Source: a virus (taxonomy: Duplodnaviria; Caudoviricetes). Taken from it: a stretch of 31,471 bases of DNA. Of the stretch, positions 488 to 31,471 are shown piece after piece. Position numbers and translations under genes: made by a program. A model generated the notes under the pieces. It did not search any database. It was not told where the DNA came from and saw only the letters and a list, made by a program, of their open reading frames with translations. Numbering within the stretch: position 1 is the first letter of the stretch; each line of letters begins with the position of its first letter. The stretch spans positions 1 through 31,471 of IMG/VR virus record IMGVR_UViG_3300017912_001626. The stretch is one strand, 5' to 3'.

Positions 488-1994
488 CCCTCGTTGGTTG
501 ACGCCGGTTCCTGCGGAGTCGGTGGAGCGTGGCGATGGGGATTTCATCGTGCGCTTCGCTGATGCGTTTGCCACGATTACGAAGGACAGCATTGCTGGGC
601 CTGCTGGTAGCAAGATGGTGTTGCGGGATTGGCAGAAGCGCTTGCTGGGTGATTTGTTTTCTCGTGATGAGGACGGCGGGCTACGGCATCGCATCAGTTT
701 GGTGGGGATGCCCAGAAAACAGGGGAAATCGGCGCTCGGTTCACTCATTGCCGCTTTTGCTCTTGTGGACTTCAAAACACAAGGGGCCGAAATTTACTCG
801 GTTGCCGCTGACCGCAACCAGGCGAAGATTGTGTTCGAGGATACGAAGAAAATGATTCGCAACTCTGAGCTTGCAGAGCACGTCAAGATTTACCGTGACT
901 CACTGTATGTGCCTGCGACGGGTAACGTGTATCGGGCGTTGTCGGCTGACGCCCCAAGACATGAAGGTTTGTCACCGACGTTGGTGTTGTTTGATGAGTT
1001 GCACGCGCAACCCAACCGCCGTCTTTTTGATGTGATGTCGTTGGCTCAGGGTGCCCGAGGTAAGCAGGCCACGCTGATAGCGATTACTACTGCTGGTGTG
1101 AAGACAGAATCGCAGACGGGTAAGGACTCAATCGCTTACACGCTATACAACTACGGTAAAAAACTGATTTCTGGTGAGGAAAAGGATGACACGTTCTATA
1201 TGTGCTGGTATGAGGCACCTTTGGACGCTGATCACAAACTTGAAAGCACTTGGGTGGCTGCTAACCCTGGTTTTGACGACATTGTTGCTAAAAGTGACTT
1301 CGAGAGTGCGGTAAAACGCACACCAGAGGCTGAATTTCGTACAAAACGGTGTAATCAGTGGGTTTCGGCGCAACAAGCATGGCTTCCGACGGGTTCTTGG
1401 GGCAAATTAGCGTCAAATGTGGACATAGAACCCGACGAAGACTATGTTTTGGGCTTTGACGGGTCTTACGCGAACGACAGCACCGCTATTTGCGCTGTAA
1501 CCATCCCGCAGGACGGCGAAAAGCCAAAAGTGAAGCTTGTGAAGGTGTGGGAGAAGGATTTTGAGCGTGATGATGACACTTGGCGGGTAAATATCGAGGA
1601 AGTGAAGCAAACAATCATCGATTATGTGCAAAAACACCCTCAATGTCGTGAAATAGCGTGCGATCCGTACCGTTGGGCGTCAATGATGCAGGATTTGGAC
1701 GAAATGGACTACCCAATAGTCGAATATAAAACAAATTTATTGAATTTGATGATTCCGGCGACCCAAAAAGTGTTTGAGGCGGTCACTGAGGAGCGTTTTG
1801 TGCATGATGGGGACCCTGTATTGTCACGGCACATCGATAACTGTGTTATCAAGATGGACCATCGTGGTCAGAGGGTCACTAAGGAGTCTGCAACGTCACG
1901 GAAGAAGATTGACGCCGCTATCGCGTTCATTATCGCCTATGACCGAGCAACAGCAAGTAGAATAGATGAAGGAGTGCCGGAGTTTTTCTTCTAA
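480..1994 (+). CDS. terL: Terminase large subunit
   Basis: Walker A MPRKQGKS, Walker B LVLFDELH, ITTAG coupling motif, nuclease motifs GFDGS and KIDAAIA. Confidence 0.97.
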   Translation: MTDPRWLTPVPAESVERGDGDFIVRFADAFATITKDSIAGPAGSKMVLRDWQKRLLGDLFSRDEDGGLRHRISLVGMPRKQGKSALGSLIAAFALVDFKTQGAEIYSVAADRNQAKIVFEDTKKMIRNSELAEHVKIYRDSLYVPATGNVYRALSADAPRHEGLSPTLVLFDELHAQPNRRLFDVMSLAQGARGKQATLIAITTAGVKTESQTGKDSIAYTLYNYGKKLISGEEKDDTFYMCWYEAPLDADHKLESTWVAANPGFDDIVAKSDFESAVKRTPEAEFRTKRCNQWVSAQQAWLPTGSWGKLASNVDIEPDEDYVLGFDGSYANDSTAICAVTIPQDGEKPKVKLVKVWEKDFERDDDTWRVNIEEVKQTIIDYVQKHPQCREIACDPYRWASMMQDLDEMDYPIVEYKTNLLNLMIPATQKVFEAVTEERFVHDGDPVLSRHIDNCVIKMDHRGQRVTKESATSRKKIDAAIAFIIAYDRATASRIDEGVPEFFF

Positions 1995-18221: not shown

Positions 18222-18224
18222 ATT

Positions 18225-18305
18225 GTGAAGCTCTCCCCGCCCTGGCCTGAGGGATACAACATTAATGCTCGAAGCCCTTATGGGTGGAAGGAAAAAAAAC
18301 TATGA
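18225..18305 (+). pseudogene. Truncated copy of the endolysin 5' end (MKLSPPWPEGYNINARSPYGWKEKKL*)
   Basis: 18225-18290 matches 18415-18480 at 57 of 66 nt. Confidence 0.8.
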
Positions 18306-18412
18306 CCGAGAGAAGATGCCCAATGGGCTCCTGTCAGCAACCGCACGAATGTAAAGGCGGCGCTTGCGGAGTCGAGTGCGAAGGGCATTTTTGCGCTGAA
18401 GTAGTGGTGTAA
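18302..18412 (+). CDS. Cys/His-rich microprotein, 36 aa (MTERRCPMGSCQQPHECKGGACGVECEGHFCAEVVV)
   Basis: AAGGA SD; stop 2 nt before the endolysin start; 6 Cys and 2 His. Confidence 0.55.
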   Translation: MTERRCPMGSCQQPHECKGGACGVECEGHFCAEVVV

Positions 18413-18414
18413 TC

Positions 18415-18942
18415 GTGAAGCTTGCACAGCCCTGGCCAGAGGGATACAACATCAATGCTCGATCCCCTTATGGGTGGAGGGTTCACCCTATTACTGGGAA
18501 GCGCAAGTTTCACCATGGGGTAGATGTTGCTGCACCCACTGGCACACCCCTAACCGCCCCCGCCGACGGTGTAATCGTGCATAAAGGCGCTGGTGGTTCT
18601 GGCGGGTACACGCTCATCATCAAGCACGCCTCAGACTTTTACACGGTCTACTACCACTTACAAAAACCATCACACTTGCTGAAGGGGACTCGCGTCAAGT
18701 GTTGCGAGCCTATAGGTTTCATTGGGAATACTGGCGCTAGTACAGGCCCCCACTTGCATTGGGAGGTGAGGCGTTCCCGCACTTGGGGTGACACTACCGA
18801 CCCTGTTCCGTACCTCGAAGCAGAGGAAAAGCCTTCGGATAAAATAGAAGAGACCAAACCGGAGCCAGCCAAACCGGAACCGGTGAAACCGATGAGCGCG
18901 AGACTTGTAAAGTTCTTTGCCATTAGGAAGGCATTGCGATAA
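18415..18942 (+). CDS. M23-family peptidase endolysin
   Basis: HHGVD (HxxxD), YYHL and GNTGASTGPHLHWE motifs. Confidence 0.92.
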   Translation: MKLAQPWPEGYNINARSPYGWRVHPITGKRKFHHGVDVAAPTGTPLTAPADGVIVHKGAGGSGGYTLIIKHASDFYTVYYHLQKPSHLLKGTRVKCCEPIGFIGNTGASTGPHLHWEVRRSRTWGDTTDPVPYLEAEEKPSDKIEETKPEPAKPEPVKPMSARLVKFFAIRKALR

Positions 18943-26349: not shown

Positions 26350-27494
26350 TGTTGGATGATTTGCAACCTGCGAAGAAGGTTGAGGCACCGTCAGGGTTTC
26401 GTCCCGCTATCGAGTTCGATGGCAATGAAGGTGTTGCCACTACTGAGGGTTTACCTGATGCCCCTAATTTTGATGAGTTTCTTGCGGAACGTGGTTATTC
26501 CCCGGAGGAGTATGAGGTAGTAGGGACACCGCGTACTTCTCAATGGCAACGCTGGGATGGGGAATGGCTCACGGCCTATCGCTTCCATTTCCGCAAGAAA
26601 GTTTCTGATGTTGATTTGCCGACATTGTTCGCTGAGGCCAGGAAAACTAAACCACCGAAGCAGGTGAAGCGCGGTAAGGATAAAGCATTTGTTGTTGTGC
26701 CGTCGGATTTGCAGGTGGGTAAGACTGGTAGCCGTGGCACGACAAAGGAGTTCTTGGCTCGCGTGTTTGAGTCGTTTGACCGTATTGAGGATGCGATAAA
26801 GCAGGCGAAGCCGGAGAAGATTGTCATTATTGATGCTGGTGACATTATCGAGTCGGTGTCGAATAAGGGTGATCAGATTCAGTTGGAGTCGAATGATTTG
26901 TCACCTATGCAACAGGTTGATATGGCGGCGTCGATTATGTGGGACCTTATCAAGCGTTGCTCGAAGTATGGTCCTGTCGAGTACGGGTCGGTTGCGTCTA
27001 ACCATTGTCAGTGGCGTCACCACGGTCAGGTTGTGGGTAGGCCAGGTAAAGACGATTGGGGTGTTGTGATTCTGCAACAGCTTCGCCGTCTCGCTCACGA
27101 GGTTGGCCTGGATGTCAAGTTCTACATTCCGCAATCAGACGAGGAGGGGTTCGCCATTGATGTGTTCGGTGATGGTTCTCATGTGCTCGGCGCTATACAC
27201 GGACACCAGGTACGCAACCCGAATGGTATCCCGGACTTTTGGAAGAAAGCCTTGTTCGGTTCACAGTATCTTGCTGCTGTAACGACTCTCGTGACAGGGC
27301 ACTTTCATCACACGATTGTTCAAGAGTTGGGTAATTCACCAAGGGGGGGGTCGCGTTGGTGGATTCAAGCCAGCACAATGGATAACGGTTCGGACTGGTT
27401 CCGCCGTATGGCGCAGGAAGACTCGCAGACCGCGATTACTTGCTTTGAACTTGTAAAGGGTGTTTACTATCAGGGAGAGATTAAACGTCTCTAG
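26349..27494 (+). CDS. Calcineurin-like metallophosphoesterase
   Basis: Motifs SDLQVG, AGD, SNH, HGH, GHFH. Confidence 0.85.
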   Translation: MLDDLQPAKKVEAPSGFRPAIEFDGNEGVATTEGLPDAPNFDEFLAERGYSPEEYEVVGTPRTSQWQRWDGEWLTAYRFHFRKKVSDVDLPTLFAEARKTKPPKQVKRGKDKAFVVVPSDLQVGKTGSRGTTKEFLARVFESFDRIEDAIKQAKPEKIVIIDAGDIIESVSNKGDQIQLESNDLSPMQQVDMAASIMWDLIKRCSKYGPVEYGSVASNHCQWRHHGQVVGRPGKDDWGVVILQQLRRLAHEVGLDVKFYIPQSDEEGFAIDVFGDGSHVLGAIHGHQVRNPNGIPDFWKKALFGSQYLAAVTTLVTGHFHHTIVQELGNSPRGGSRWWIQASTMDNGSDWFRRMAQEDSQTAITCFELVKGVYYQGEIKRL

Positions 27495-27504
27495 TTAGGG
27501 GAAA

Positions 27505-27696
27505 ATGATGACACGGGAACAAGAACTACTACAGATAGCGAACAACTATTCGGAGAAGCTGAGTGGTGTGAAAACTCATCCACCGTTTGATAAGCGTTAC
27601 AGCAAATCATCGAAGGATCGTATAGCAATTTCTATGCGGCATTACTATCGTGAGGTTTCGGCGATTTTCTCGTCGGAAGGGGAAAACAAACAATAA
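27505..27696 (+). CDS. Hypothetical protein
   Basis: AGGGG SD; 63 aa. Confidence 0.5.
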   Translation: MMTREQELLQIANNYSEKLSGVKTHPPFDKRYSKSSKDRIAISMRHYYREVSAIFSSEGENKQ

Positions 27697-27747
27697 TCTC
27701 TCAACAAGGTTATTTTCCCTTGACATATAACTGAATATGCTCAACAT

Positions 27748-27796
27748 AAAAAAAGGGGGGGGTCTCGCCCACACGAGGTCCCTCTCTTTTTGTTTT
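27748..27796 (+). terminator. Long G-U-rich hairpin with U tail (terminator or small RNA)
   Basis: AAAAAGGGGGGGGTCTCG-CCCACA-CGAGGTCCCTCTCTTTTT; pairs fully only on the + strand, using four G-U pairs. Confidence 0.6.
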
Positions 27797-27876
27797 GGGA
27801 GCGTTCTGGTTTCGACTATGTGAAGACCACTTGTGGAGCAGATAGGAGCAGGGTTCGATTCCCTGCGCCTCCACCA
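27797..27876 (+). ncRNA. Mini-tmRNA-like RNA (tRNA-like domain only, 80 nt)
   Basis: 5' GGGAGCG-TTCTGGTTTCGA-C; short P2 stem; GAG linker; T-arm CAGGG-TTCGATT-CCCTG; CGCCTCC-A-CCA with G3-U70. Confidence 0.75.
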
Positions 27877-27877
27877 T

Positions 27878-27944
27878 TCGGTGAAAGTCGGTTAACTCGG
27901 TTCAAAAAAGTTCCTAGGGAAAACAAAATTTCGCAAGTCTTTGA
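27878..27944. repeat. Intergenic repeat, copy 1
   Basis: TTAACTCGGTT (27892)-N23-AAATTTCG (27926), then AGTCTTTGA. Confidence 0.85.
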
Positions 27945-27966: not shown

Positions 27967-28287
27967 ATGTCGAAGTTCCGCCAACCTTGCCTGGATTGTG
28001 GGCGTGTGACCCGTAATGGTTCTCGCTGCCCTGAGCATCAGCAGGCTCGTGATCGGTACACGGATTTGGCGAAGGCTGCCCGTAAGAAGGCCACGGGGCA
28101 ATACTCTGGGGATTACCGGAAACGGGCTAGGGCTGTGCGTGAGGCTGCGACTGTGTGTTGGTTGTGTGGTGGTGGGGCTGTGCCTGGTGATCCGTGGCAG
28201 GCTGACCATGTTGTGCCGGGTAATCCTGATTCGCCGTTGGCTCCAGCGCATAGGTCGTGTAACGCGGCTCGGGGCAACAAGGTTTAG
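27967..28287 (+). CDS. HNH endonuclease (packaging-associated, HK97 gp74-like)
   Basis: PCLDCG...RCPEH, CWLCG, ADHVVP, AHRSCNAARG; leaderless promoter TAAACT at 27955. Confidence 0.88.
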   Translation: MSKFRQPCLDCGRVTRNGSRCPEHQQARDRYTDLAKAARKKATGQYSGDYRKRARAVREAATVCWLCGGGAVPGDPWQADHVVPGNPDSPLAPAHRSCNAARGNKV

Positions 28288-28358
28288 TCGGTTTCCGATT
28301 CGGTCTTAACTCGGTTCAAATCGTTTCCCCTGGGGCGCAAAATTTCGTCAGTCTTTGA
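28288..28358. repeat. Intergenic repeat, copy 2
   Basis: TTAACTCGGTT (28306)-N23-AAATTTCG (28340), then AGTCTTTGA. Confidence 0.85.
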
Positions 28359-28496: not shown

Positions 28497-28907
28497 ATGA
28501 CAGTAGAAAAAACACTAGGGAAGGCCGATCTGAGCGCACGCTCGGACGCTCAACTAGCGCACCGTTTCGATCAACAGTTGGACGCTATTTGGCGGCTAGG
28601 TGATCGTGATGAGTGCTCTATCAAACACATTGGGCACGGTATGGCCGCCCTAATTTCTACGGGTGACTGGCGAAACGCCAAAGATTACGAAACCCCGTGG
28701 GGTTATTACCCGTACGGGCAAACCGTGGAACTCGAAAGAAAATATGAGCGCTTAGACGAAAAATGGGGCAAGGTGATTGACACTATTGTTCGCATTGACA
28801 ATCTAGGGCGCGTGGAAGATTCGATCATTCCGGAAACCAAATTCGCTTTTTACATTGAGGCTTACTTGGAAACTTATTGGTATGGCCTTGAGGCGGTGAG
28901 TGAGTAA
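28497..28907 (+). CDS. Hypothetical protein (accessory operon)
   Basis: AAAGGA SD; first gene after the promoter. Confidence 0.75.
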   Translation: MTVEKTLGKADLSARSDAQLAHRFDQQLDAIWRLGDRDECSIKHIGHGMAALISTGDWRNAKDYETPWGYYPYGQTVELERKYERLDEKWGKVIDTIVRIDNLGRVEDSIIPETKFAFYIEAYLETYWYGLEAVSE

Positions 28908-29473
28908 TGGGCACGCGCGGCATTATCGCCGTTATCCACGACGGCAAATACAAGGTGACCAAGTACGGTCAATACGATCACTACCCTGAGGGGCAGGGCT
29001 TGGACATTCTTCACTGGCTGAAGCACCCGCATAGACAACATGAATCTTTTGTCTCACGGTTTGCTCAAAGACTTGAAAATGTTATTCCGGCAACGGAAAA
29101 AGATATTCAAGACGCGGTAGGTGAAGTGACCGGCGACCCGTACCAAAATGGTTTCAGTCTCGAACAAAGTAATCGCTACAAGGCGCTCTACCCAAATTTC
29201 TCGATAGGTACTGGGGCGAAAATCCTTGACGTTATTTGGGACGCGCCGCCTTACGACCCGTTACCAATAGATATGTATGAGATGAGCCATGTCGAAAGGT
29301 GGGAAATTGAGGGTATTTACACGCTTGATTTGGACGCCCGCTTGTTTATCTCTGACTGGCACGAGAAGGTCATGGCGTGGTCTTTTGATGAGCTGCCCGA
29401 TTATGCGACCTATCTTGCCCACTGGGAGGAAAACGAGGACGCGGAAACGCTTATCGAGGCGGTGAGTGCGTGA
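28907..29473 (+). CDS. Hypothetical protein (MGTRG...YGQYDHYPEGQG type)
   Basis: TAATG overlap; coding-like composition. Confidence 0.8.
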   Translation: MGTRGIIAVIHDGKYKVTKYGQYDHYPEGQGLDILHWLKHPHRQHESFVSRFAQRLENVIPATEKDIQDAVGEVTGDPYQNGFSLEQSNRYKALYPNFSIGTGAKILDVIWDAPPYDPLPIDMYEMSHVERWEIEGIYTLDLDARLFISDWHEKVMAWSFDELPDYATYLAHWEENEDAETLIEAVSA

Positions 29474-29796
29474 TGAGATACACCACGAAAACTAACCCCG
29501 TATTGCGGGAAGTTATTTACGGCGGAGGCTGGGATAAGGGTGACCCGTGGGGTTCTGCAATGTCAAGCGCTTTCGCTGTTGCCGATCACTTGCAGTTTGG
29601 CTTTGGCTGGACGCCGTCAGACTGGGAGTTCACGCCCGCAATGGGTGGCCCCGATGACGATGTCTTTGAATATAGGGCAATAGGTGAAGCCTTGGAAGGG
29701 CTTTCGTATCAGGAAACAAGCAACGTGCTTGTTCACGCGGGCAATGTGCTGCTGAAGTATCGCGGCCTGCTGAAGTCAATGGGGAGGGATTACTAA
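29470..29796 (+). CDS. Hypothetical protein
   Basis: GTGATG overlap. Confidence 0.7.
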   Translation: MMRYTTKTNPVLREVIYGGGWDKGDPWGSAMSSAFAVADHLQFGFGWTPSDWEFTPAMGGPDDDVFEYRAIGEALEGLSYQETSNVLVHAGNVLLKYRGLLKSMGRDY

Positions 29797-29897
29797 TGAG
29801 CGCCGTATTCACGCAACAGTTACTCGCTGCTATCCACGATAGGCGTGTGGAGGACATTATCGCTGGAAGGTTGTCTGATGACGAGTTGGACGATTGA
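29796..29897 (+). CDS. Hypothetical microprotein, 33 aa (MSAVFTQQLLAAIHDRRVEDIIAGRLSDDELDD)
   Basis: GGAGG SD; TAATG overlap; absent from the ORF track. Confidence 0.55.
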   Translation: MSAVFTQQLLAAIHDRRVEDIIAGRLSDDELDD

Positions 29898-30069
29898 CTA
29901 CACCTACGCCTGTTGGAAGTGCCCTGACCGGCACGCCCATAACGCCACGATTGAAGCACCTGACCCTGACCTAGCGGTGGCTATGTGGAGGGCTGATCTT
30001 ATGGGTGACTTTGGTGGCGCTCACGATTATGACCTGTTAGTGACAGACATTAGAAAGGAAATGAAATGA
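29878..30069 (+). CDS. Hypothetical protein (CxxC)
   Basis: GGAAGG SD before MTSW; ATGA overlap with the next gene. Confidence 0.6.
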   Translation: MTSWTIDYTYACWKCPDRHAHNATIEAPDPDLAVAMWRADLMGDFGGAHDYDLLVTDIRKEMK

Positions 30070-30230
30070 AAACATACAGAGTGAACTATGACGGTTGGCT
30101 GGAAGTGGAAGCTAACGATCAAGAACACGCTTTCTTGTTGGCCTATAAAACTCTGAACGCCCCAGAGGCGCTGCCGTGTGATGGCGCTATCGGGGAATGG
30201 TATGTGAACGAACCGGAGGAAACGAAATGA
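30066..30230 (+). CDS. Hypothetical protein, 54 aa (MKTYRVNYDGWLEVEANDQEHA...)
   Basis: AGAAAGGA SD; ATGA overlaps at both ends; absent from the ORF track. Confidence 0.7.
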   Translation: MKTYRVNYDGWLEVEANDQEHAFLLAYKTLNAPEALPCDGAIGEWYVNEPEETK

Positions 30231-30589
30231 AATACCCAATTATTGATTGCCCGCGACACGAAGGCGCTTACGACTGTAATTCGTTTTGTGATGTTTGCGA
30301 GGGTGAGCAACAGTATGAGTGGACACCGTTTCGTCTTTGTACAGATTGCGGCACCGCGATTGATCACGATATTTGGTTTGAGGAATTAGGTATGTGTGTT
30401 GATTGCTCGAACCAATACTTTGGGCATTATGGGAAGTATGACCCGGTTTGGGGTCGTATGGGTAGGCCCGATAACCCGCTGGAGGCGTGTGAGTGTGGGC
30501 AAGATGACCCGCTGCCTGTGGCGCACGAAGATGGTTGCCCTATTTGGGAGGCCGCTAAGAATGAACAAATGGAAAGGGAAATGAAATGA
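30227..30589 (+). CDS. Cys-rich (Zn-binding) hypothetical protein
   Basis: GGAGG SD before MKYP; multiple CxxC motifs. Confidence 0.7.
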   Translation: MKYPIIDCPRHEGAYDCNSFCDVCEGEQQYEWTPFRLCTDCGTAIDHDIWFEELGMCVDCSNQYFGHYGKYDPVWGRMGRPDNPLEACECGQDDPLPVAHEDGCPIWEAAKNEQMEREMK

Positions 30590-30876
30590 GATGGAATAAC
30601 GAAACAAAAGAAGCGATTACGCTCACTAATATCCATGGTGAACCGTATCAAGTGGAATACCCGATAGCGATTATCGAGGGCAACGATTACGACTATCTTT
30701 ACGACCTACTTTGCCGGGTGTCAGACGGTGAGGAAGTTGGCACAGACGCCGACTTGGACTGGATAGGCGGCATGATGAAATACGGCCTGCTTACCTGTTG
30801 TGAAGGCCGTCATGTTGTTGGTCGCCTTAAAATGTTGGGTTATGAAAAAAAGGGGGGGGTATATGTTCAAGCCTGA
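30586..30876 (+). CDS. Hypothetical protein
   Basis: AAAGGGA SD; ATGA overlap. Confidence 0.65.
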   Translation: MRWNNETKEAITLTNIHGEPYQVEYPIAIIEGNDYDYLYDLLCRVSDGEEVGTDADLDWIGGMMKYGLLTCCEGRHVVGRLKMLGYEKKGGVYVQA

Positions 30877-31060
30877 GATTTTCAAGCAACCCGAATGGGA
30901 CACCGTAGAAACTACGGGTGATGAGGAATGGCGGGTGACTCTACGAAACTTTGGCAAAGGTTTGGTGTGGGTTTCGATTGTCACCGCCGGTTTGGTAGCC
31001 GCGTGTTTCTACTTTGTGTGGATCATTATCGCTGCCGCTTTCAAGGTAGGTGATTCCTAA
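30863..31060 (+). CDS. Small membrane protein
   Basis: G-rich SD before MFKP; C-terminal hydrophobic stretch. Confidence 0.6.
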   Translation: MFKPEIFKQPEWDTVETTGDEEWRVTLRNFGKGLVWVSIVTAGLVAACFYFVWIIIAAAFKVGDS

Positions 31061-31386
31061 TGGGTATGGTGATGGATTTCGTGAAGTCGCTACTGGAGGA
31101 AACACCTGTTTACACCGCTGAGGAACGCCGTATGGCTGACTGGGCGAACGCCGTGACAAGCGACAACTGGGTGCTACTACACAAATACCGTATGGACGAG
31201 AACCTTGACGCGGCGGGTTTCTATATGCGGGTCGCTGAAGCGTATGCTCACGCTTACGCGGCGGGCCGGGAACCGACCCGCAACGCTGACTGGAGTGCTT
31301 TCAAGAAAACTCTGGAAAACCTACACCACCCGCAACTTGCGGAGGCTACAAAGTATCGGCACGACAATAGGACAGGCAGGGTGTGA
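31060..31386 (+). CDS. Hypothetical protein
   Basis: TAATG overlap; AGGT SD. Confidence 0.65.
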   Translation: MGMVMDFVKSLLEETPVYTAEERRMADWANAVTSDNWVLLHKYRMDENLDAAGFYMRVAEAYAHAYAAGREPTRNADWSAFKKTLENLHHPQLAEATKYRHDNRTGRV

Positions 31387-31396
31387 TCAGTCAAAA

Positions 31397-31471
31397 TCGG
31401 TCTTAACTCGGTTAAGAATAATCTCTAGGGAAACAGAAATTTCGCGAGTTTTGGCTTCGAACACCTGTTTG
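31397..31471. repeat. Intergenic repeat, copy 3, with a truncated SOS-box-like site
   Basis: TTAACTCGGTT (31403)-N23-AAATTTCG (31437); TCGAAC-ACCT-GTTTG at 31457-31471. Confidence 0.8.

Follow-up and report, generated by a model that had tools for sequence, protein, structure and literature searches.

A tag-less, DS6A-type tmRNA in a marine phage is part of a large, structurally conserved family of phage RNAs

What is encoded by the 80 nucleotides that lie between a small open reading frame and an HNH endonuclease gene in a phage genome in which neither ARAGORN nor the Rfam tRNA model (RF00005) finds a tRNA gene? The window, i.e., the whole stretch of DNA analysed here, is the complete 31,471-base virus record IMGVR_UViG_3300017912_001626, which is rated 100% complete. 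It is the genome of a marine phage and contains terminase, head, RecE-like, RusA-like, HNH, and WhiB genes. Its best match among 50,697 phage records was Pontimonas phage phiPsal1 (terminase, 53%; phosphoesterase, 47%), suggesting that the host is likely a Pontimonas-like actinobacterium of the Microbacteriaceae; phiPsal1 itself is no longer available (PMC6106888). A preliminary description of the element had read it as the tRNA-like domain (TLD) from a tmRNA without the tag region, and had offered three functions for it: an SmpB decoy protecting phage proteins from tagging, a tag-free ribosome-rescue RNA, or a decoy for defence nucleases. The features discussed below are collected in Table 1.

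Table 1 Positions of the element, its parts and neighbours in the window, and of the other loci discussed. Numbers are window coordinates unless another record or locus is named; L and X numbers are our handles for loci and for sequencing runs, respectively.
Feature	Position	Strand	Description	Basis
Phosphoesterase/exonuclease-like gene, 388 aa	26328..27494	+	upstream; phrog_284, E 3e-51	
63-aa ORF, no known family	27505..27696	+	upstream; precedes the element in slot relatives too	
Terminator-like hairpin and U tract	27750..27796	+	directly before G1; 18 pairs predicted at -25.0 kcal/mol, the minus-strand fold being weaker	
TLD-only (tag-less) tmRNA gene, DS6A type	27797..27876	+	80 nt including encoded CCA; RF00023 54.2 bits, model R1 59.1 bits	
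Acceptor stem, 5' strand	27797..27803	+	G3 of the alanine identity pair G3-U70; A4 (27800) mismatched with C69	sequence
D-loop, stemless	27804..27815	+	equivalents of E. coli U17 and G19 (SmpB contacts), A15 equivalent = U; numbering inferred from the ends of E. coli tmRNA	Rfam consensus alignment
Shortened helix 2 (30-nt middle)	27816..27845	+		family covariation
3-nt linker	27846..27848	+	central A corresponds to E. coli A334 (SmpB pocket); G as the third base is rare, 3/108	
T-arm	27849..27865	+	5 pairs, canonical 7-nt loop	
Acceptor, 3' strand	27866..27876	+	27866-27872 including U70; discriminator A 27873; CCA 27874-27876	sequence
53-nt repeat, first of three copies	27892..27944	+	just after the element	
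HNH endonuclease gene	27967..28287	+	downstream; phrog_144, E 3.5e-7	
DS6A element	JN698994 28478-28560		83 nt; located in this analysis; tmRNA Website tmID 11587, Phage__Mycobacterium.9	
Pontimonas phage phiPsal1 mini-tmRNA	L335:5569-5650 (MG835450)		before capsid gene; 78.7 bits on R1; unannotated	
Sole match without U70	L353:301-368 (-)		G3-C70, middle otherwise typical	
Second tRNA-like RNA	L233:1200-1287	+	other copies in L232, L234, and L235; same contigs as L156, L157, L158, and L153	

With cmscan, the tmRNA model RF00023 exceeded its cut-off of 47 bits on the element (E 8e-19), and its positions 1-374 were laid on the 80 nt. Both tmRNA ends were matched, whereas 310 inner model positions shrank to 16 nt, the tag frame and the pseudoknots being absent. 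The tRNA model RF00005 reached 14 bits on the same 80-mer against a cut-off of 29, and neither a D-stem nor an anticodon arm was found; the element is thus not better described as a degenerate ordinary tRNA, and the Infernal comparison (54.2 versus 14 bits) bears out its reading as a tmRNA head with the middle replaced. The model of permuted tmRNA, RF04321, gave 19.4 bits for the 3' part only, below the threshold of 47 bits. The window copy contains no mRNA-like domain and is not a full-length tmRNA, though it passes the RF00023 threshold. ARAGORN, also suggested in the preliminary description, called no tRNA, and its sole tmRNA call was a 530-nt gene at 27347-27876, which we rejected as spurious because it starts inside the 388-aa ORF. 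When applied to 80 related loci, ARAGORN called no tRNA or tmRNA gene. Rfam matches to RybB and IRES_Bip were below cut-off and were judged to be due to chance.

The single parts of the RNA were found where they had been described, namely the acceptor stem (G1-C72, G2-C71, G3-U70, and the mismatch A4-C69 at 27800/27869), the discriminator A and CCA, the stemless D-loop, the 3-nt linker, and the canonical T-arm. Only the middle had to be redrawn. It had been called a 30-nt irregular stem; the length holds, but the structure is an ordered one common to the family, in which a 7-pair stem (27816-27822/27839-27845) encloses an internal loop rich in A and a hairpin of three pairs that closes a 4-nt loop (27827-27836). 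This middle also contains a second mismatch, G27820/G27841, that had gone unnamed beside A4-C69. An assembly artefact is contradicted by three seawater runs from a single study (X1-X3), whose contigs show no variant across the element; X1 may be the source of the window record. Moreover, relatives carry the same short form rather than a full-length tmRNA in 13 of 13 metagenome pattern matches.

An RNA of this type has been published before, and the novelty implied in the preliminary description is not supported. The relevant passage of PMC4131195 includes 'Mycobacterium phage DS6A (TLD only)' in a list and states that a similar molecule strongly inhibits tmRNA, chargeable or not, perhaps by titrating SmpB. 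As excerpted, PMC11915505 adds that the DS6A form inhibited the cell's own tmRNA when expressed in E. coli. The DS6A element and the window copy both have the standard order, a length of about 80 nt, G3-U70, the discriminator A, a stemless D-loop, and no tag frame. They also share the same middle, i.e., a helix 2 stub, an A-rich loop, and a hairpin of 3-4 pairs with a 4-nt loop, which we define here as the family feature. They differ in the canonical D-loop and the encoded CCA, present in the window copy and absent in DS6A, in the A4-C69 and G-G mismatches and the preceding terminator-like hairpin of the window copy, and in host group and gene context. The primary paper on the inhibition of tmRNA by the DS6A form is reportedly that of Mao et al. 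2009. Judged by its sequence, the window element is a DS6A-type tmRNA head without a tag template.

Other known RNAs are more distant. Standard bacterial tmRNA (RF00023) shares with the window copy the TLD ends, the alanine identity, and the equivalents of U17, G19, and A334; however, the window copy lacks the pseudoknots, the resume codon, the tag frame, and the stop codon and could therefore not complete trans-translation. A tRNA-like domain without a tag frame is also found in the organellar tmRNAs lacking a CDS, for which PMC11915505, in the part cited, gives mitochondrial examples and plastid genes of about 65 bp in Mallomonadaceae. These serve the translation of the organelle itself, whereas the window copy is viral and its host is expected to have a full tmRNA of its own. 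The database described in that excerpt lists 72 no-CDS sequences as permuted, unlike the window copy with its standard order, and 9 as 'standard, no CDS' among 97,179 sequences. tRNA-Ala (RF00005) resembles the window copy in G3-U70, the discriminator A, the T-arm, and CCA, but the window copy has no D-stem and no anticodon arm. A literature search, with most subscription journals outside its scope, found no description of a widespread family of tag-less mini-tmRNAs in phages.

Such a family emerged from pattern searches of viral sequences. A strict pattern matched 20 viral stretches, 18 of which gave Rfam tmRNA calls of 78-90 nt; a looser pattern gave at least 120 loci, with about 240 estimated. 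Parsing of the pattern matches listed yielded 106 distinct elements, from which one chance pattern match (L029) was dropped, and most of the remaining 105 were 80-83 nt long. The estimate for IMG/VR, based on the pattern with U70, is about 280 stretches. With two family members as BLAST queries, long matches were obtained in seven records of Streptomyces phages and in one of a Stenotrophomonas phage. The four records checked (Shaeky, BRock, LuckySocke, and Jojan60) all contain the element, annotated as tmRNA in none, and many family members lie within phage tRNA arrays. The family model R1, built from 26 copies with the window copy and DS6A left out of training, scored DS6A at 63.0 bits (for the window copy, see Table 1).

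The same searches brought up other RNAs. A search of 185,579 cellular genomes gave 81 pattern matches, of which those in Cyanobium/Synechococcus were rejected as permuted tmRNAs and several others as chance matches, and 22 were assigned to an RNA of Candidatus Poribacteria. The latter is TLD-only and about 86 nt long, its middle being different (22 loci, L237, L266, L272, L277, L281, and L308 among them), and all five Poribacteria genomes tested also have a full tmRNA beside smpB. The matches in Caulobacter phage CcrBL9 (L141:1176-1481) and Pseudomonas phage SM1 (L149:920-1311) were permuted two-piece tmRNA genes and not TLD-only; both are above the Rfam cut-off and unannotated in their records. 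The match in Cellulophaga phage Calle_1 was a full-length tmRNA. Shorter variants with altered D-loops were seen in phage Nibb (L143:1160-1232, 73 nt; 31.8 bits on RF00023), where the variant lies directly before an integrase gene, and in Vibrio phage D419 (L150:957-1027, 71 nt; 38.2 bits). Very short members (65-68 nt), with a plain hairpin for a middle, occur at L023, L031, L034, L049, L058, L069, L078, L111, and L136. At L004 and L011, a Pistol ribozyme above the Rfam cut-off was located about 100 nt upstream of the mini-tmRNA (1689-1750, minus strand).

The structure of the family RNA was examined by covariation. In an unfitted alignment of 76 copies, RNAalifold recovered helix 2 and the T-stem, with compensation at 9 of 11 pairs. 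A model-fitted alignment of 93 distinct copies, which leans towards the structure (training rows, 26/94), had 96.8% of its cells paired, whereas shuffles gave 69.4% and slid controls no more than 53.9%; 16 of its 21 pairs changed on both sides, and none of 500 shuffles reached the observed pairing. The inner hairpin was 91% paired in this alignment with compensation at all three pairs, and it outscored its shuffled versions in 80 of 91 copies. The homologs therefore show the covariation that the preliminary description had proposed to look for, together with a length mostly of 80-83 nt.

We then considered which bases the family keeps. Passages of PMC3968760 and PMC8363625 describe G3-U70 with the discriminator A as the signal for AlaRS, and U17, G19, and A334 of E. 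coli tmRNA as contacts of SmpB, respectively. The equivalents of U17, G19, and A334 are kept in the window copy, and that of A15 is U, as in most of the family. In the viral collection, patterns identical except at position 70 matched an estimated 280 stretches or so with U and a single one without (Table 1). Position 3 was left free by the search pattern; it was G, and never A, in 96 of 96 distinct copies of the U70 set, all seven acceptor pairs of which were formed. These acceptor counts were obtained by anchored parsing, since the MAFFT alignment A1 misplaced the 5' strand of the acceptor. Given the near-invariance of U70, alanine charging of the family RNAs looks to be under selection. No smpB gene was found in the 43 carrier records, which include 12 virus records at least 90% complete and many fragments, or in the window genome; an SmpB partner would therefore be that of the host.

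We propose, with a probability of about 0.5, that the RNA is tag-less and alanine-charged and competes for host SmpB and stalled ribosomes, adding alanine without a tag. In the window, it would be transcribed by read-through of the upstream hairpin, its 5' end would be processed by RNase P, and the RNA would likely be charged with alanine and bind host SmpB and EF-Tu. The charged RNA might then enter non-stop ribosomes and take over the nascent chain, competing with host tmRNA for both SmpB and the stalled ribosomes. With no template in the RNA, no tag would be added, and tagging by host tmRNA would fall; the stalled proteins would gain alanine and no degradation tag, a back-up factor of the host would later release the chain, and the phage would benefit from proteins spared tagging for destruction. 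Alanine tailing seems possible in view of the template-free polyalanine synthesis in vitro by a TLD fragment with SmpB, as given in an excerpt of PMC3929946. Among the three functions suggested at the outset, competition for SmpB has a published precedent.

A pure SmpB sponge would also lower trans-translation by binding SmpB, without accepting a peptide; G3-U70 would then be kept because charging or EF-Tu binding stabilises the RNA. The retained SmpB-contact bases would suit a sponge, and the inhibition reported in the passage of PMC4131195 regardless of chargeability indicates that charging is unnecessary for inhibition. However, the U70 ratio of about 280 to 1 and the perfect acceptor pairing in 96/96 copies are more constraint than a sponge needs, and we regard it as unlikely. 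The conservation of G3-U70 argues for a charged RNA working on the ribosome over an inert sponge, a reading in which the decoy and the tag-free rescue RNA of the preliminary description merge.

It is also conceivable that the family is functional and the window allele is decaying or silent, its two private mismatches and the upstream terminator leaving little active RNA. The A4-C69 mismatch is indeed confined to the window allele (1/105 copies; 0/96 others in the U70 set), which forms six of the seven acceptor pairs. A27800 and G27820 were limited to the three runs from that single study, whereas G was found at 27800 in 13 of 13 metagenome relatives and in runs X4, X6, X18, and X19 of other studies, and C at 27820 in X4 and X6. 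The predicted acceptor pairing of the window allele, 0.11, was the lowest of 127 copies (median, 1.0); the helix-2 probabilities from this folding were left unused, as the choice of register made them unreliable. The minimum-energy fold of the isolated 80-mer was not tRNA-like (z -0.43), whereas that of L014 was. On these models, the window allele probably works less well than those of its relatives, in some of which the gene has been lost or replaced. On the other hand, the folding programs ignore D/T-loop contacts and SmpB, and G3-U70, the discriminator, CCA, the D-loop, and the T-arm are intact, with A27818-T27843 a Watson-Crick pair. The hairpin and U tract before G1 are kept in all slot relatives shown and precede perfectly paired alleles too, one with compensatory changes (L162 and L188), so that the hairpin by itself is no mark of decay. 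Decay of the window allele is accordingly a reading to which we give little credence.

Expression signals of the window copy were scanned as well. No terminator was called, the hairpin at 27750-27796 included. The promoter consensus scan gave none on the plus strand and one site on the minus strand (1 found versus 0.6 expected by chance), and a -10-like hexamer at 27736 was rejected as a promoter because it is not conserved in relatives. With the terminator-like hairpin before G1 and no plus-strand promoter, expression of the window copy would need read-through. Twenty sequencing runs were matched, three of them RNA runs with small shares; contigs of X18 and X19 span the element plus the HNH gene, and X20 is without the element. 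As the RNA-run contigs also span neighbouring genes, they say nothing on transcription of the element.

In this phage group, the gene is neither universal nor fixed in place. Among 80 loci found via the upstream gene, 63 of which offered at least 600 nt downstream, the element occupied the window's slot in 10. When 49 related records were searched whole, 23 contained it, as did three of the six near-complete ones, and by this distribution the mini-tmRNA gene is dispensable in the group. In 13 of the 23 carriers, it lies elsewhere, antisense and before another HNH gene. Each of these 13 copies has, by inspection, a -10-like hexamer 6-7 nt before G1, and a script found it in 6/6 distinct regions; across the family, such a hexamer 5-8 nt before G1 was present in 32 of 136 upstream regions, versus 3-10 in five control windows. 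With the window slot, the antisense site, and the phiPsal1 site, the group shows the element at three positions and in both orientations, which, together with the -10-like hexamers, argues from sequence for a mobile, independently expressed RNA gene.

The surroundings of the window copy have features of their own. Copies of a 53-nt repeat follow the RNA (27892-27944) and the HNH gene (28306-28358), and a third lies at the genome end before the small terminase gene (31403-31455); its 11-nt core occurs six times with at most one mismatch, against 0.44 expected. The region 28497-31386 between the HNH gene and the small terminase gene is a block of ORFs, six of which, when tested, gave no named PHROG family and one weak match of unknown function; in phiPsal1, the corresponding genes are not followed by such a block. 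Elsewhere, the start of the endolysin gene is duplicated over 70 nt (86% identity), and this second copy lies 190 nt upstream of the gene (18222-18291 versus 18412-18481).

In four close relatives (L153, L156, L157, and L158), the mini-tmRNA is absent from the slot and a different tRNA-like sequence stands there. In this second RNA, an acceptor-like stem of six pairs includes G3-C70, the D-like hairpin is short, the middle is long and rich in U and C, and the T-arm shows compensatory changes. It matched no Rfam family and scored just 16-20 bits on R1 (E 0.007-0.08); its ends look like those of the mini-tmRNA without the G3-U70 pair. Three pattern scans for it returned the same four contigs and no further copies, and no mini-tmRNA was found elsewhere in the record of L153, which is 95% complete. 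A second tRNA-like RNA in the same slot is a hint that the slot may serve to provide a tRNA-like shape, as would be expected if the mini-tmRNA, without a role on the ribosome, were a decoy for host defence nucleases or other proteins recognising tRNA or tmRNA. The many family members within phage tRNA arrays would fit as well. But the window RNA has no anticodon loop, its genome has no tRNA gene, and the conservation follows the determinants of AlaRS and SmpB, making such a decoy improbable. A DNA-level relic without an RNA role, i.e., an attP site or a one-off deleted ssrA copy, might be suspected from the common use of ssrA 3' ends as integration sites, the many BLAST matches of that type to the 3' part, and the 73-nt variant beside the Nibb integrase, but it is largely refuted by the covarying stems and is very improbable, as both tmRNA ends are present, the complete window genome has no tyrosine integrase (PF00589) or serine-recombinase (PF07508) domain, ARAGORN found no tRNA or tmRNA gene in the 80 related loci, and the element takes three positions in both orientations.

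The charged competitor for SmpB and stalled ribosomes can be extended to a wider picture, which we put forward tentatively and consider doubtful as a whole. In hundreds of phages on several host phyla, a charged mini-tmRNA would hijack host SmpB, take over stalled chains, and add at least one alanine instead of the tag, as a viral counterpart of alanine tailing. In the present phage group, it would be an exchangeable cassette at three positions, swapped in some relatives for the second tRNA-like RNA, which resembles the same head minus the alanine identity pair and has no Rfam family.

The TLD-only kind has so far been known from one phage, DS6A, and the present analysis points to a large, structurally conserved phage family that annotation has missed. 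With 105 distinct copies examined and about 280 estimated, it far exceeds the curated 2025 record of 9 'standard, no CDS' entries in the excerpt of PMC11915505. The family appears to be marked by selection on alanine identity and by reliance on host SmpB. Carriers with laboratory Streptomyces hosts make it testable, and the window copy contributes strong and weak alleles that form a natural pair, together with a slot shared with a second tRNA-like RNA. If the RNA diverts stalled ribosomes from tagging, viruses would thereby exert widespread control over protein quality control in bacteria, and the RNA would be a natural inhibitor of trans-translation.
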